IMG/VR virus record: IMGVR_UViG_2703718823_000008
Reading direction: 5' to 3' (one strand)
Length of the DNA stretch: 33,510 bases
DNA from: a virus
Lineage: Duplodnaviria; Heunggongvirae; Uroviricota; Caudoviricetes
The position numbers were made by a program, and so were the translations under genes. A model generated the notes under the pieces. That model searched no databases. It was given only the letters and a program-made list of their open reading frames with translations, and was not told where the DNA came from. Numbering within the stretch: the first letter of the stretch is position 1; every line of letters starts with the position of its first letter. Positions 4,615 through 14,905 of the stretch are shown piece by piece.

Positions 4615-4974
4615 ATGCTCATAGATTTGGTTTTACCTTACCCGCCAACGGTGAACACCTACTGGCGTCGTCGTGGCAGCACATATTTTATCTCGGAGGA
4701 GGGAAAGCGCTATCGCCGTGCTGTGGCGCTTATTGTTAACCAGCAGCGGCTGAAATTAAGCCTGTCCGGAAGGCTGGTAATCAGGATTATTGCAGAGCCA
4801 CCGGATAAGCGCCGCCGTGACCTGGACAATATTCTGAAAGCGCCGCTGGATGCGCTTACGCATGCGGGGTTGTTAATGGACGATGAGCAGTTTGATGAAA
4901 TCAATATTGTGCGTGGCCTGCCTGTTCCTGGCGGGCGGCTGGGGATAAAAATCACAGAACTGGAGTGCGCATGA
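4615..4974 (+). CDS. rusA: Holliday junction resolvase RusA
   Basis: 119-aa ORF; N-terminal LPYPPTVNTYWR and central DxDN region characteristic of RusA; GAGG SD. Confidence 0.9.
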   Translation: MLIDLVLPYPPTVNTYWRRRGSTYFISEEGKRYRRAVALIVNQQRLKLSLSGRLVIRIIAEPPDKRRRDLDNILKAPLDALTHAGLLMDDEQFDEINIVRGLPVPGGRLGIKITELECA

Positions 4975-5654
4975 ATAACCAGTATTTACAGTTTGTTCGT
5001 GAGCAACTCATGATTGCCACTGCGGATCTCAGTGGGGCGACAAAAGGCCAGCTGGAAGCCTGGCAGGAGAATGCCCTGTTCGATACAGGGCGTTACAGAC
5101 GCAAAAAAATTCGTTATCGCGATGAGGTAACCGGAAAAATGATCACGCGGGATAATCAACCGATCCCGGGTAAACAATCACTGGCGAAAGGCTCATCAAT
5201 TGCGCTGGTCAGTCCGGTTGAGTTTGCAACATCATCGTGGCGGCGTGCCGTTCTGGAACTGGAAGAACATCAGAAGGCGTGGTTACTGTGGTGCTACAGT
5301 GGAAATGTTTGCTGGGAAGATCAGGTCACTATAACACAATGGGTATGGGGTGAGTTTAAAGCTCAGGCTGGTACCAGAAAAATTGCAGGGAAAACGCTGG
5401 ATCGTCTGAAGAAACTGATTTGGCTGGCGGCACAGGATGTGAAGAGTGAGCTGGCAGGGCGTGAGACCTATGAACATCAGGAGTTAGCGGTGTTCATAGG
5501 AGTTGCTAAATCTACATGGACAAAAACACACAGGCCTCACTGGTTGGCTATGCGGGGTAGTGCAGAGATGCTGGACAGGGATGCTCTTATTTCAGTAATG
5601 CGGGTACGTTCACGGCAAAAGTCGATTAATTTAGAACCATATCTTGCAAAATAG
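4971..5654 (+). CDS. Late-gene antiterminator Q-like protein
   Basis: Start overlaps the rusA stop (ATGA); position immediately after rusA and before stacked terminators and the late genes; family assignment is by position and loose recall, not a verified motif. Confidence 0.65.
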   Translation: MNNQYLQFVREQLMIATADLSGATKGQLEAWQENALFDTGRYRRKKIRYRDEVTGKMITRDNQPIPGKQSLAKGSSIALVSPVEFATSSWRRAVLELEEHQKAWLLWCYSGNVCWEDQVTITQWVWGEFKAQAGTRKIAGKTLDRLKKLIWLAAQDVKSELAGRETYEHQELAVFIGVAKSTWTKTHRPHWLAMRGSAEMLDRDALISVMRVRSRQKSINLEPYLAK

Positions 5655-7430: not shown

Positions 7431-7506
7431 GGCCCTTTAGCTCAGTGGTGAGAGCGAGCGACTCATAATCGCCAGGTCGCTGGTTCAAATCCAGCAAGGG
7501 CCACCA
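7431..7506 (+). tRNA. tRNA with CAT anticodon, Ile2 (lysidine) type, resembling the host ileX/ileY tRNA and the ileZ of Stx phages
   Basis: Manual cloverleaf fold: acceptor GGCCCTT/AAGGGCC, D-loop with GG, anticodon loop CTCATAA, T-loop TTCAAAT, 3' CCA encoded. Confidence 0.85.
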
Positions 7507-7515
7507 TATCACATA

Positions 7516-7592
7516 CCGCCATTAGCTCATCGGGATAGAGCGCCAGCCTTCGGAGCTGGCTGCGCGGGGTTCGAGTCCTCGATGGCGGTCCA
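7516..7592 (+). tRNA. tRNA-Arg with TCG anticodon
   Basis: Manual cloverleaf fold: acceptor CCGCCAT/ATGGCGG, anticodon stem CCAGC/GCTGG with loop CTTCGGA (G at position 37), T-loop TTCGAGT, 3' CCA encoded. Confidence 0.75.
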
Positions 7593-8321: not shown

Positions 8322-8612
8322 GTCCAGATGATTTTGGGGTGCTGGAAAGATATTGTGCTGTGAAGTGTTAAATTCCTCACAATTCAGTAAGTTGACAGTT
8401 GCCTGTCAGACTGGGCATTTGTTAAAAAAATTTCGCATGGTGAATCCCCCTGTGCGGAGGGGCGACTGGTGAACGGTATGATCTCTTTGATGATCGTAAG
8501 CGAGAATACGCGGGTTTAGTGTCACCGGGCTGAACTCACCGGGAGGCACCCGGCACCATGCTCATGGTGATACAGAAATGCGGCTTCAGCCCCTCTCTGG
8601 AGGGGCTTTCTT
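8322..8612 (+). repeat. Structured noncoding repeat unit A (about 270-290 bp) ending in an intrinsic terminator; candidate sRNA or 3'-UTR element
   Basis: Shares conserved blocks with units B and C (GTTAAAT-CCTCACA-TTCAG; TGAATCCCCCTG-GCGGAGGGGC; ACCGGGAGGCACCCGGCAC-ATG); terminator GCCCCTC-TCTG-GAGGGGC plus T-tail at 8589-8612. Confidence 0.6.
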
Positions 8613-8618
8613 ATGGAC

Positions 8619-8646
8619 AAAAAAGCCCGCGCTGGGAGACGCGGGC
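8619..8646 (-). terminator. Minus-strand intrinsic terminator capping repeat element D1 (about 8619-8745)
   Basis: GCCCGCG/CGCGGGC stem preceded on + by A6 (T6 on the minus strand); flank GGCAAGGAATAAA-CAATAAAACGTGAAGTAAT conserved with D2. Confidence 0.5.
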
Positions 8647-8765
8647 GGCAAGGAATAAACAATAAAACGTGAAGTAATATTTCAGCTGGCGAATAATACC
8701 CCATAGTAATCACTCTGCGCAACTGCGCGGCCTTTTTCGAATTGCGGGCTGTAGTCTCCCTTCTG

Positions 8766-8930
8766 CCGGGTGGCCTGGTTGCAGATTTCTTCATGGGGTA
8801 GGGTTCGGCAGTTAAAGCAGCGATGGCGCTGGGGCGTCGTGCTATAGGCGTTGAGCTGGATACCGGGCGTTTTGAACAGACTGCGCAGGCAATCAGGGAT
8901 ATATTTATCGGTAGCTGTTTGCAGAAGTAA
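8766..8930 (+). pseudogene. 3' fragment of a second, diverged DNA methyltransferase gene (homologous to 7232-7390) with an in-frame TAG
   Basis: Nucleotide homology to the 3' end of the intact methyltransferase; translation gives LVADFFMG*GSAVKAAMALGRRAIGVELDTGRFEQT; no upstream part of the gene. Confidence 0.7.
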
Positions 8931-9004
8931 TCTCCCAAAATTCCATTTTTGGAATGCAGTGGTTGTTGCTGTAGTGTGGGCAAGTTCTGGAACTGGCTTC
9001 GTCC

Positions 9005-9281
9005 ATTGCAGATGATTGTTAGCTGGATATCAGTTACCTCATGGAAATGTTAAATGACTCACAATTCGGTTGATGGACTATTGTCTGATTGATGGAAGTC
9101 TTGTAAAAACGAGCCAGCATAGTGAATCCCCCTGTGCGGAGGGGCGTCTGACATGGTCTCCATAGCGATGGTCACAATACGCAGATTCAGTAGTCAGGCT
9201 GAATCTACCGGGAGGCACCCGGCACTATGCTGCTTATGGTGTATACACAGCGATCGGCCCCTCTCCTGAGGGGCTTTTTTT
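9005..9281 (+). repeat. Structured noncoding repeat unit B ending in an intrinsic terminator
   Basis: Same conserved blocks as unit A; terminator GCCCCTC-TCCT-GAGGGGC plus T7 at 9257-9281. Confidence 0.6.
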
Positions 9282-9289
9282 GTGCGGGA

Positions 9290-9543
9290 AAAGGCTGTGT
9301 TGTTAAATGTTAAATCCCTCACAGTTCAGATGGTTGATGCTTGCCTGTCTGACGGGGAGTTGTTAAAAAAGTTCTGCATGGTGAATCCCCCTGAGCGGAG
9401 GGGCATATCAGCGCAGGTGTTTCTACTCTATCCTTTCTGTGCGGGTTCAGGTGCTGATACTGAACTCACCGGGAGGCACCCGGCACCATGTAGTATACAG
9501 AGATTAGGCATACATCCAGGCTCCTCATTGCAGGAGCCTTTTT
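9290..9543 (+). repeat. Structured noncoding repeat unit C ending in an intrinsic terminator
   Basis: Same conserved blocks as units A and B; terminator AGGCTCCT-CATTGC-AGGAGCCT plus T4 at 9518-9543 (different stem sequence, same structure). Confidence 0.6.
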
Positions 9544-9549
9544 ACATGC

Positions 9550-12392: not shown

Positions 12393-12466
12393 CCATGCGC
12401 AGGGGTGTCGGTGTGAGCTGATGCCCCACTTGTTGTTGTGAGCTTCCGGATTGCGGGAGACGGGGT

Positions 12467-12682
12467 ATGTACCAGATGGAAAAAATCACAACAGGTTTGT
12501 CATACACCACGTCAGCGGTGGGAACGGGCTACTGGTTCCTGCAGTTGCTGGACAGGGTTTCCCCGTCTCAGTGGGCGGCAATAGGCGTGCTGGGGAGTCT
12601 GCTGTTTGGGCTGCTGACATATCTGACGAACCTGTATTTCAAAATTAAAGAAGACCGGCGTAAGGCGGCGCGGGGAGAGTAA
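12467..12682 (+). CDS. S: Holin, phage 21 S-type pinholin with dual start (Met1 and Met4)
   Basis: 71-aa ORF closely matching the phage 21 S pinholin ([22 protein letters not shown]...[22 protein letters not shown]) as recalled. Confidence 0.85.
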
Positions 12683-12686
12683 GCTG

Positions 12687-13220
12687 ATGAGCAGGAAACT
12701 CCGCTATGGTTTATCGGCTGCCGTTCTGGCGCTGATTGGTGCAGGGGCGTCTGCGCCTGAAATCCTCGACCAGTTTCTGGATGAAAAAGAAGGCAACCAC
12801 ACCACGGCATACCGTGATGGCGCGGGTATCTGGACCATCTGCCGTGGAGCCACCCGGGTGGATGGTAAGCCTGTTATTCCTGGCATGAAGTTGACGAAGG
12901 AAAAATGCGACCAGGTTAACGCCATTGAACGTGATAAGGCGCTGGCATGGGTGGAGAAAAACATCAAAGTGCCACTGACCGAACCCCAGAAAGCGGGTAT
13001 TGCGTCATTCTGCCCGTATAACATTGGCCCAGGTAAGTGTTTCCCGTCGACGTTTTATAAACGAATTAATGCAGGCGATCGCAGGGGAGCGTGTGAGGCG
13101 ATTCGCTGGTGGATTAAGGACGGTGGCAGAGACTGCCGTATTCGCTCAAATAATTGCTACGGTCAGATATCCCGTCGTGACCAGGAGAGCGCGCTGGCGT
13201 GCTGGGGAATCGACAGATAA
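12687..13220 (+). CDS. R: SAR endolysin (lysozyme-like with N-terminal signal-anchor-release helix)
   Basis: 177-aa ORF; N-terminal hydrophobic SAR-like segment LSAAVLALIGAGA; lysozyme-like core; directly follows the holin. Confidence 0.9.
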   Translation: MSRKLRYGLSAAVLALIGAGASAPEILDQFLDEKEGNHTTAYRDGAGIWTICRGATRVDGKPVIPGMKLTKEKCDQVNAIERDKALAWVEKNIKVPLTEPQKAGIASFCPYNIGPGKCFPSTFYKRINAGDRRGACEAIRWWIKDGGRDCRIRSNNCYGQISRRDQESALACWGIDR

Positions 13221-13313
13221 GCAGAATATTTTGCTGAAAAATGACGTTGACCAACGCGGACGGATAACACGAAATCCTGCGAACTGGCAAAACCTAGTGA
13301 ATAAAAGTAAAAA

Positions 13314-13346
13314 CCCCGTTTGTTGGCAGCAAGCGGGGTTTTGTGT
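13314..13346 (+). terminator. Strong intrinsic terminator-like hairpin between the endolysin and Rz
   Basis: 9-bp stem CCCCGTTTG/CAAGCGGGG with 7-nt loop, followed by TTTTGTGTTT; A-run on the 5' side makes it potentially bidirectional. Confidence 0.5.
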
Positions 13347-13417
13347 TTCCTGACTCCGGAAAAGTCAAAGGAGAAAGTGTGTTTAATTTTAGCAAACTGA
13401 TTCGGGAGATTCGAGTG

Positions 13418-13516
13418 ATGGCTGAAAAATTATCCACCTGGAAGTTCATCCTTATCTGGCTGGTGTTTGTGATTATGGCCTCCGGTTATTTCATCGGTCA
13501 GATACGCTGGTGGTGA
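13418..13516 (+). CDS. Small single-TM peptide (32 aa; [32 protein letters not shown])
   Basis: GGAG about 10 nt upstream; stop overlaps the Rz start region; below the ORF-track length cut-off. Confidence 0.3.
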
Positions 13517-13517
13517 A

Positions 13518-14012
13518 ATGAACCGCGTTCTGTGTGTGGTCATTATTGCCTTGCTGGTGGCCTGTGGTGCGCTTAGTCTGGGGCTGAATCATTACCGTGA
13601 TAACGCCATCACCTACAAAGCGCAGCGCGATAAAAAAGCCAGAGAGCTGGAGCTGGCAAACGCAACCATTACTGACATGCAGCAGCGCCAGCGTGATGTT
13701 GCTGCGCTTGATGCCAGATACTCAAGGGAATTAGCCGATGCGAGAGCTGAAAATGAAACTCTGCGTGCTGATGTTGCCGCTGGTCGTAAGCGCCTGCGGC
13801 TCAACGCCACCTGCCCCGGTACCGTGCGTGAAGCCACCGGCACCTCCGGCGTGGATAATGCAACCGGCCCCCGACTGGCAGACACCGCTGAACGGGATTA
13901 TTTCAACCTCAGAGAACGGTTGATGACAATGCAGAAGCAGCTGGAAGGGGCGCAGGAATATATACGCACTCAGTGCACTAAGCTGGCTTTTTATTATCCG
14001 GAGGATACATGA
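13518..14012 (+). CDS. Rz: Spanin, inner-membrane subunit Rz
   Basis: 164-aa ORF strongly resembling lambda Rz ([16 protein letters not shown]...[15 protein letters not shown]...[20 protein letters not shown]). Confidence 0.9.
13738..13923 (+). CDS. Rz1: Spanin, outer-membrane lipoprotein subunit Rz1 (embedded in the +1 frame of Rz)
   Basis: 61-aa ORF with lipobox LVVSAC and proline-rich [27 protein letters not shown] matching lambda Rz1. Confidence 0.8.
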
Positions 14013-14572: not shown

Positions 14573-14905
14573 ATGAAAATGAAAAGAAATCTTCCGTTAA
14601 TTATTTTGTTGTCTTCTCTGGTTATGGGCTGTACGCAACATAAAACAGATATGCCCCGACAGTTGGTTAAGGCATTACCACAATATCCGGCCTATGCAGC
14701 GGCAAATTATATAAAGGGACGGGTTGATGTGAAGTTTGATATTGGTGCTGATGGTACTGTCACCCGAATTGAGTTTATCCGTTCAGAGCCGCACCATCTG
14801 TTTGATGAGCAGGTTGTAAAAGCGATGGCAAAATGGCGATTTGAGAAGGACAGGCCGCGTAAAGGCGTGAAGAAAACGTTTATCTTTAGTCCTTCTGCAC
14901 CCTGA
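14573..14905 (+). CDS. Lipoprotein carrying a stand-alone TonB C-terminal domain
   Basis: Signal peptide with lipobox LVMGC (Thr at +2); C-terminal region aligns by eye to E. coli TonB C-terminus (PQYPA-A----I-G-V-VKFD---DG-V...S-P---F......AM--WR-E); promoter-like TTGATG and TAGAAT plus palindrome AGAATAAG-A-CTTATTCT at 14542-14558 upstream. Confidence 0.8.
   Translation: MKMKRNLPLIILLSSLVMGCTQHKTDMPRQLVKALPQYPAYAAANYIKGRVDVKFDIGADGTVTRIEFIRSEPHHLFDEQVVKAMAKWRFEKDRPRKGVKKTFIFSPSAP

Follow-up and report, generated by a model that had tools for sequence, protein, structure and literature searches.

The virus record IMGVR_UViG_2703718823_000008, a stretch of 33,510 nucleotides (nt) called the window here, is the late region of an Escherichia coli lambdoid prophage of the Shiga-toxin (Stx)-phage type. 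In its lysis cassette, 297 nt separate the endolysin gene R from the inner-membrane spanin (i-spanin) gene Rz. We found that this gap carries a strictly linked and mobile pair, a GC-rich hairpin followed by an open reading frame (ORF) for a 45-amino acid (aa) membrane protein, designated ORF45. On the opposite strand, the first codons of ORF45 contain an extended -10 promoter motif whose conservation exceeds the coding requirement. We propose that the hairpin and the gene form one small membrane protein cassette resembling a toxin-antitoxin pair of type I, which would be controlled by an antisense RNA, gated by a terminator, read only by Q-modified polymerase, and translationally coupled to Rz. 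Judged from sequence comparisons, this proposal is plausible, if somewhat short of probable.

ORF45 Is a Conserved Small Membrane Protein Gene

A sequence-only reading of the same DNA had reported a peptide of 32 aa with a single transmembrane (TM) segment, starting at ATG 13418, between the endolysin and Rz genes. The small gene proved to be real but longer than that: it starts at GTG 13379, placed 5 nt after an AAGGAG Shine-Dalgarno (SD) sequence (GGAG at 13370-13373), and encodes 45 aa, with ATG 13418 as its internal Met14 (all features are listed in Table 1). The close homologous loci, 211 in total and gathered from viral, genome, and metagenome collections, all contained a frame of 45 codons with a GTG or TTG start, and ATG was used as the start codon by four distant relatives. 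The ratio of nonsynonymous to synonymous substitution rates (dN/dS) was 0.06-0.14 in the ORF45 frame versus 0.7-3.1 in the other two frames. ORF45 is a genuine gene under purifying selection. It was matched end to end by PHROG 6632, a family without an assigned function (E = 1.5e-28; residues 1-45 aligned with all 45 profile positions), and 40 representative clusters of homologues were obtained at E <= 0.001. No Pfam, NCBIfam, or PADLOC family matched ORF45, the defence-system models of PADLOC gave no hits, and eight distant relatives matched no Pfam or NCBIfam family, the Hok family profile included. A 138-nt coding sequence for ORF45 is already annotated in some RefSeq and GenBank records and is missing from most. 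In one record (L001, 2730-2867, WP_192825475.1), the Prokaryotic Genome Annotation Pipeline names the product "HAD family hydrolase", a clear misnomer for a single-TM peptide.

The membrane character claimed for the peptide was borne out across the family, with one predicted TM segment at about residues 21-40. At fewer than 60 aa and hydrophobic, the protein has the size expected of a type I toxin. The most economical guess is that it is a membrane-active lysis helper or timer, or a toxin, and a role in lysis is possible. Glu10 (GAG) and Met14 were invariant. By analogy with dual-start holins and SprG1, we speculate that a second start at Met14 might yield the 32-aa form as well.

The Hairpin Is a Conserved Structure with Terminator Features on Both Strands

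The strong T-tailed hairpin between R and Rz, also noticed in the sequence-only reading, was located at 13310-13342. It contains nine Watson-Crick pairs, formed by AAAACCCCG (13310-13318) and CGGGGTTTT (13334-13342). On the + strand the stem reaches 15 pairs with G.U pairs included, closes on a 3-nt loop, is preceded by AATAAAAGTAAAAA, and is followed by TTTTGTGTTTCC. This hairpin was the strongest of 8 terminator-like hits between 11500 and 15500, a region for which shuffled sequences gave 4.0 +/- 1.9 hits, and the fold of the 91-nt leader reached -31.8 kcal/mol (z = -4.2). Fifteen distinct hairpin variants, drawn from E. coli, Salmonella, Citrobacter, Edwardsiella, and metagenomes, were aligned. 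Pairing was maintained in 98.5% of the cells, and both sides had changed in 5 of the 13 pairs, with compensatory changes such as CCCC/GGGG to CUCC/GGAG and A-U to G-C. The covariation score was reached by none of 500 shuffles, and sliding the partners reduced pairing to only 42-55%. The hairpin is a selected, conserved structure.

The features of an intrinsic terminator, namely a GC stem, a short loop, and a 3' U-rich tract, were present on both strands in all lineages. In the A-tract, A10-A12 were invariant, and the unpaired U-tract 3' of the stem was invariant or nearly so, the latter matching what a terminator, rather than a mere stability hairpin, would show. Transcripts would be expected to terminate at this site. 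The distance from the hairpin to the start codon was 27-40 nt in every homologue, close or distant. It was 32-37 nt in all 47 distinct upstream sequences of the close loci. The distant homologues with an upstream hairpin were seven relatives from genomes or metagenomes, one from a Pseudomonas phage, and that of Salmonella phage SEN34. L226 has another terminator immediately 5' of the hairpin.

The Pair Is Strictly Linked and Mobile

A comparison with related lysis cassettes, as the sequence-only reading had suggested, showed both elements to be conserved in all 211 close loci; they also occurred together in 9 distant ones, without exception. A downstream gene was called in 199 loci. It was an Rz-type i-spanin gene in 195 of these, with the ATG 1 nt after the ORF45 stop codon, a gene for another i-spanin-like protein at the same distance in one (L125), and a gene for a 92-aa TM protein (L146/L147 type) in three, 22 nt after the stop codon. 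Across contexts, the next gene began 1-26 nt past ORF45. The upstream gene varied, encoding an R21-type lysozyme, one of three other endolysin types, an antirepressor (ant, which the hairpin follows directly in L108), or a TonB_C lipoprotein. The pair was found between the baseplate spike and wedge genes in SEN34 and between minor tail genes in Pseudomonas phage YMC11/02/R656. In one distant relative it followed a lambda-type tail K gene, in another it lay among ParE/RelB/HicAB modules next to terminase, and further distant relatives carried it in other structural-gene contexts. The A-tract, GC stem, and U-tract were kept in all of these distant contexts. As a mobile cassette, the pair inserts into late operons and accessory islands; in lambdoid phages it has settled before the spanin genes. 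An obligatory spanin-specific function was rejected, as SEN34, the Pseudomonas phage, and other contexts lie outside spanin genes. Because distant homologues sit among tail and baseplate or toxin-antitoxin genes, we interpret the pair as a mobile cassette rather than a spanin attenuator.

These contexts bear on the function proposed in the sequence-only reading, in which the hairpin attenuates Rz/Rz1 transcription and the peptide is a dedicated lysis regulator, either antiholin-like or spanin-directed. Such a role would fit the spanin genes that nearly always follow ORF45, with a start codon 1 nt beyond its stop codon in 196 of the 199 loci, and also the different small TM ORF that VT2-Sakai-type phages carry in the same slot. 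It has a precedent in LysA of phage P2, a membrane protein encoded between the endolysin and spanin equivalents. However, the Q gene (4965-5654) lies upstream on the same strand, and Q-modified polymerase should ignore the terminator (PMC2629481); read-through is expected, and attenuation of the spanin genes during lytic growth is unlikely. Homologues with the same hairpin also occur outside lysis cassettes, and no match to a known regulator family was found for the peptide. The cassette is combined with four unrelated endolysin families and with different holins, and it is therefore not matched to a pinholin or to a signal-anchor-release endolysin. We consider this role improbable. The sequence-only reading thus recognised features that are real, conserved, and functionally linked, while the length of the ORF, the attenuation, and the lysis specificity found no support in the form proposed.

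Other small membrane proteins were noted near this slot. In VT2-Sakai (L008, 3839-3985) and Sakai Sp10 (L224, 1625-1771), ant is accompanied by an unrelated 48-aa TM ORF (phrog_4906, ECs_1966). As this ORF is located directly upstream of Rz, it represents a second small membrane protein family in the same slot. No hairpin precedes it in these Stx2-type cassettes, and homology between ORF45 and the 48-aa ORF of VT2-Sakai was rejected, none being found. In Salmonella phage FSL SP-016 (L007, 2392-2502), an unannotated 36-aa TM ORF with a weak match to phrog_14810 overlaps the endolysin stop codon (ATGA).

An Antisense Promoter Is Predicted within the First Codons of ORF45

The complement of ORF45 codons 3-6 forms an extended -10 element, TGCTAAAAT, a minus-strand motif that had escaped the sequence-only reading. 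TGCTAnnAT was present in 211/211 close loci. The more general form TGnTAnnnT was present in 8 of the 9 distant relatives, in other versions (TGCTAGAAT, TGATAAACT, TGATATAAT, and TGATAGGAT) and over different codons, and 16 of the 18 lineages had its last T between ORF positions +4 and +7. The seven sequence versions of the motif lie over differing residues, D/N/Y/E followed by F/I/L/S/Y and then S/I. Codon 3 encodes D, N, Y, or E and ends in AT wherever it encodes D, N, or Y; codon 4 encodes F, I, L, S, or Y and ends in T; and codon 5 is AGC for Ser or ATC for Ile. Among ten clade representatives, one synonymous change was found in codons 1-7 (a CTA among the Leu7 codons) and none in codons 10-12. 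Codons 22-43 varied freely. Of 17 lineages checked for Arg12, 14 used the rare codon CGA, whose complement, TCG, opens the weak -35 element. With random synonymous codons, the motif would appear at the same position with a probability of 0-23% per lineage. The product over nine well-diverged lineages was about 4e-8, a figure obtained by multiplying the per-lineage probabilities as if the lineages were independent. The promoter motif is conserved beyond the coding requirement.

A transcript from this promoter would begin at the ORF45 start codon, would be complementary to the start codon, the SD sequence, and the leader, and would end at the hairpin. Its predicted length was 74-83 nt in 16 of the 17 motif-carrying lineages and 89 nt in L236. 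The predicted RNA folds into a 5' stem-loop followed by the terminator, with z values of about -4 in the enterobacterial copies. The extended -10 motif and the minus-strand terminator are conserved at a fixed spacing, and we infer that a cis-antisense RNA may be made and may repress ORF45.

The SD sequence may also be masked by the sense RNA itself. In minimum free energy folds, the distal UUUCC of the U-tract paired with the SD (GGAGA) and would act as an anti-SD. A stem-loop with a 7-nt loop was formed in 12 of 16 lineages, and in 11 of those 12 the SD was located in or abutting the 3' arm. The inner stems varied, with UGAC/GUCA in the window and CCUUG/CAAGG, CCUG/CAGG, CAUG/CAUG, CCUUCUG/CAGAAGG, and others elsewhere. 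The stem-loop is predicted to occlude the SD; on the other strand, the complementary sequence would form the 5' stem-loop of the antisense RNA.

Several observations weigh against an antisense-controlled cassette. The motif was absent from its expected place in L234 and shifted to +18 in L236, both distant relatives, and the -35 element TCGAAT is weak, matching at 3 of 6 positions. Near a start codon, synonymous changes may also be suppressed by the demands of translation initiation. Of 19 hairpin variants, 17 had the greater stability on the + strand (mean of -19.8 kcal/mol on the + strand and -17.6 kcal/mol on the - strand), so that selection clearly bears on the sense RNA too. For the SD stem-loop, the energies alone did no better than shuffles, and the evidence for it comes from the recurring geometry rather than from the energies. 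The toxins of classical type I systems are transcribed independently, whereas no sense promoter of its own was found for ORF45, so that the cassette is not a classical autonomous system of this kind. The search for sigma-70 promoters gave nothing convincing or conserved in the block after R, the hairpin, or the spacer. In the Hfq-CRAC (cross-linking and analysis of cDNA) list for O157 Sakai, which covers Hfq-bound RNAs only, no peak was located in the R-Rz gap of Sp4, the one gap checked. Hfq binding is not required of a cis-antisense RNA. No Sp15 peak was located in the R-Rz gap of that phage either, its coordinates being estimated.

An alternative is a mosaic junction, in which the hairpin is the terminator of the upstream gene (the 3' end of R, ant, or a bor-like moron) and marks the left edge of an ORF45-spanin module. 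ORF45 would then be an ordinary late small membrane protein, for example a superinfection exclusion protein or a membrane accessory, no antisense RNA would exist, and the conservation of codons 1-12 would reflect translation-initiation and mRNA-folding constraints. The greater stability of the + strand hairpin agrees with this explanation, as does its retention while the upstream neighbours vary, which is the behaviour of a module-boundary terminator; its position directly after ant in L108 is a case in point. A mosaic junction does not explain why the spacing of 27-40 nt between hairpin and start codon is fixed even among baseplate and tail genes of unrelated phages, why the A-tract for a minus-strand U tail is retained, or why TGnTAnnnT survives amino acid replacements in seven versions. 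We regard it as unlikely.

Known RNAs and Other Candidate Promoters

A second minus-strand promoter hit, at 13501..13472 (9/12 matches), was rejected, since its -10 element was lost in the aligned Salmonella sequence (inspected by eye). The small RNAs (sRNAs) Pas, AgvB, and AsxR were also rejected as candidates, none being located in the R-Rz gap: PasA and PasC lie between the esterase and holin genes, PasD/STnc100 lies upstream of the esterase gene, and AgvB/AsxR occupy other positions of the moron region that follows pR'. At Rfam gathering scores, only STnc100 (three copies) and two tRNAs were detected in the window, all outside the gap. At E <= 10, the gap gave only sub-threshold, terminator-driven hits (rimP leader, ohsC, and others). 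The rimP-leader match was on the minus strand at 13300-13375 of the window, 2513-2654 of L007, and 1401-1497 of L108, scoring 24.6-30.4 bits where the gathering score is 47. In the window and in L108 this match spans the predicted antisense RNA, and in L007 it reaches about 65 nt further upstream. It probably reflects no more than a similar layout of two hairpins plus a terminator. The abundant Hfq-bound RNAs EcOnc10, EcOnc11, and EcOnc12 (Tree et al. 2014) map downstream of Rz, and their near-identical peak areas suggest repeated copies. In Sakai Sp10 (L224), EcOnc11 is encoded between Rz and a ynfO-like gene on the opposite strand, outside the R-Rz gap.

A Separable Conserved Block Follows the R Stop Codon

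The R stop codon is directly followed by a conserved non-coding block composed of GAATATTTTGCTGAAAAATG, a hypervariable patch of 13 nt (about 13244-13256) that is often palindromic, and CGGACGGATAACACGAAATCCTG. E. coli and Salmonella share the block, and Edwardsiella has kept part of it, even though synonymous divergence (dS) in the neighbouring ORF was about 1.7, a value at which synonymous sites are saturated. The block also follows another type of endolysin, in L125, and it precedes a different terminator-like hairpin and then ant in both VT2-Sakai and L108. Most variants of the block, though not all, contain a mini-ORF of 8 codons (ATG...GGATAA).

The block could be read as part of an IsrK-like system, in which positions 13221-13299 and the hairpin form an sRNA that activates, in trans, an otherwise inactive ORF45-Rz read-through mRNA. 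The layout is similar, with a terminator, a 45-codon ORF with its SD in a hairpin, and a coupled downstream gene (PMC4825925). The block is conserved upstream of the hairpin despite the saturated sites nearby, and in VT2-Sakai and L108 it again precedes a terminator-like hairpin and an antirepressor gene. However, a search with the Rfam isrK model (RF01394) over 13100-13620 was negative, both at the gathering threshold and at E <= 10, and L007, L008, and L108 likewise had no match. In addition, no convincing sigma-70 promoter was found for the block, and many contexts in which it is missing have kept the hairpin-ORF45 pair. An IsrK-like activation is very improbable in our judgement.

Proposed Mechanism and Significance

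The antisense-controlled cassette that we favour would operate as follows. In a lysogen, polymerase without Q would stop at the hairpin, and any leaked mRNA would be blocked by the SD stem and the antisense RNA, keeping ORF45 silent. The antisense promoter in codons 3-6 would supply an RNA of about 78 nt that covers the start codon, the SD, and the leader and ends at the two-way hairpin. Established lambda biology leads one to expect that intrinsic terminators do not stop Q-modified polymerase. After induction, such a polymerase would pass the hairpin, late mRNA would outnumber the antisense RNA, and ORF45 would be translated. Lambdoid late operons are indeed switched on by Q antitermination (PMC2629481, PMC7547250). 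Ribosomes ending at the ORF45 stop codon could then reinitiate 1 nt later at Rz, across TGAAATG. The peptide would probably act on the inner membrane, either as a toxin or in lysis, where it would assist or set the timing.

Literature searches returned no description of ORF45 or its RNA, and the arrangement is apparently undescribed. We put forward with more reserve the broader idea that the cassettes constitute a new, widespread family of phage-borne, type I-like systems. In such a family, a bidirectional terminator would both limit sense transcription to antiterminated polymerase and end the antitoxin RNA, and the 45-aa peptide (possibly in 45- and 32-aa forms) would serve as a membrane-active timer of lysis, as an auxiliary holin, or as a toxin of abortive infection, and would be coupled to the translation of spanins in Shiga-toxin phages. 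If the antisense model is true, an RNA-controlled membrane protein would join the classic holin-endolysin-spanin scheme and could influence when lysis occurs and, through it, the release of toxin and phage. The expression logic of the new type I-like family would then depend on antitermination. Detection of an opposite-strand promoter motif that persists under amino acid change is a method that may help to find other hidden antisense genes.

Prophage Context and Lysis Cassette

The Q gene, the insertions downstream of it, and the lysis genes are all on the + strand. Between Q and the lysis cassette, a methylase gene, two tRNA genes (7431-7589), three tandem copies of the PasD-related sRNA STnc100 (8406-9549), and a sialate esterase gene are inserted, the tRNA and sRNA genes being located between Q and the esterase gene. 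Another terminator-like hairpin, GGGGTGTCGG...GATGCCCC with ACTTGTTGTT, was observed at 12402-12427, just 5' of the holin gene, so that the holin and endolysin genes are bracketed by two terminators. PasA/PasC sRNAs have been reported at this position (bioRxiv 10.64898/2026.05.13.724894). On the minus strand at 14706-14733, inside a TonB_C ORF, a promoter-like sequence close to the sigma-70 consensus (TTCACA, 16 nt, TATAAT; 11/12 matches) is oriented back toward Rz.

In the Qin prophage of K-12, the homologous lysozyme and spanin genes, rrrQ and rzpQ, overlap, and the R-Rz gap of the window is therefore extra DNA. The cassette was not found in K-12, where rrrQ and rzpQ of Qin are contiguous and rzpR of Rac is truncated. 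At least 80% of a 451-nt stretch around the gap was present in approximately 871 of 5426 complete E. coli genomes, or about one in six, as well as in H-19B and many Stx1a, Stx2a, and Stx2c phages; the cassette is located in the lysis region of Stx1, Stx2a, and Stx2c phages.

Table 1: Positions of the lysis genes and of the elements in the R-Rz gap of the window.
Feature	Position	Strand	Evidence or remarks
Q antiterminator	4965-5654	+	PF06323; upstream of the lysis cassette
Holin S, phage-21-type class II	12467..12682	+	PF04971, E = 1.5e-32
Endolysin R, phage lysozyme	12687..13220	+	PF00959, E = 3.8e-25; RefSeq: lysozyme / rrrQ
Conserved non-coding block	13221..13299	+	Directly after the R stop codon; separable from the cassette
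A-rich tract 5' of the stem	13300..13313		Would give the predicted minus-strand RNA its U tail, UUUUUACUUUUAUU; A-rich in 18/18 tabulated lineages
Predicted cis-antisense RNA, about 78 nt	13300..13380	-	Predicted 5' end at about 13378-13380; predicted to end at the hairpin and U tail
GC-rich hairpin, read as a two-way intrinsic terminator	13310..13342	both	Covariation; stability on both strands; upstream of every homologue examined
U-tract of the putative sense-strand terminator, TTTTGTGTTTC	13339..13349	+	T40-T48 invariant or nearly so across clades
Second stem-loop, 7-nt loop	13346..13374	+	UUUCCU pairs with AGGAGA; UGAC (13351-13354) pairs with GUCA (13364-13367)
ORF45, 45 aa	13379..13516	+	phrog_6632; dN/dS; 211 loci; charged amphipathic N-terminus and one C-terminal TM helix
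Predicted antisense promoter	13386..13414	-	Extended -10 TGCTAAAAT (13394 to 13386), 17-nt spacer, -35 TCGAAT (13414 to 13409)
32-aa frame from Met14 (sequence-only reading)	13418..13516	+	GGGAG (13404-13408) 9 nt upstream; Met14 invariant
i-spanin Rz	13518..14012	+	PF03245, E = 9.5e-50
Outer-membrane spanin (o-spanin) Rz1, embedded in Rz	13738-13923	+	PF06085, E = 2.5e-21

Comparison with Known Systems

The hokW-sokW system of prophage Sp5 assists phage-mediated lysis (PMC8621323). Like Hok-type systems, the cassette is prophage-borne and comprises a gene for a small hydrophobic membrane protein, an initiation region masked by mRNA folding, and a promoter, predicted here, for a short cis-antisense RNA inside the 5' end of the frame. 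In contrast, ORF45 has no Hok Pfam hit and no mok-like overlapping frame, and no sense promoter was found. A further difference is the intrinsic terminator upstream of the ORF, which would also end the antisense RNA; ORF45 itself is a candidate toxin.

The canonical moron of Hendrix et al. (2000) reportedly consists of a promoter, a gene, and a terminator. The cassette resembles a moron in lying between genes that are adjacent in relatives, in its predicted factor-independent terminator, and in its occurrence at several late-operon sites. Here, however, the terminator is upstream of the gene, and the sole promoter-like element found points the opposite way.

In the immI region of P22, where sar was reportedly described by Liao et al. 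in 1987 and Wu et al. in 1987, the arrangement is comparable in that a short antisense RNA from a late-operon insertion, predicted in our case, controls translation of the gene that it overlaps. In P22 the antisense RNA is sar, and the gene that it controls inside the late operon is ant (PMC2629481). In contrast, the target in the cassette is a 45-aa membrane protein instead of an antirepressor, Arc and Mnt repressors are lacking, and there is no sequence similarity.

The isrK-orf45-anrP locus of Gifsy-1 (Hershko-Shalev et al. 2016) combines a terminator, a 45-codon ORF whose ribosome-binding site is locked in a hairpin, and coupling to the next gene (PMC4825925). That system employs a sense sRNA acting in trans, whereas no Rfam isrK match was obtained here; the two systems were compared by layout.

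In the par system (Fst/RNA II) of plasmid pAD1, the toxin mRNA and the antitoxin RNA share a bidirectional intrinsic terminator at the 3' ends of convergent transcripts. The cassette described here would likewise use a shared bidirectional terminator, the difference being that it is positioned 5' of the toxin-like ORF.

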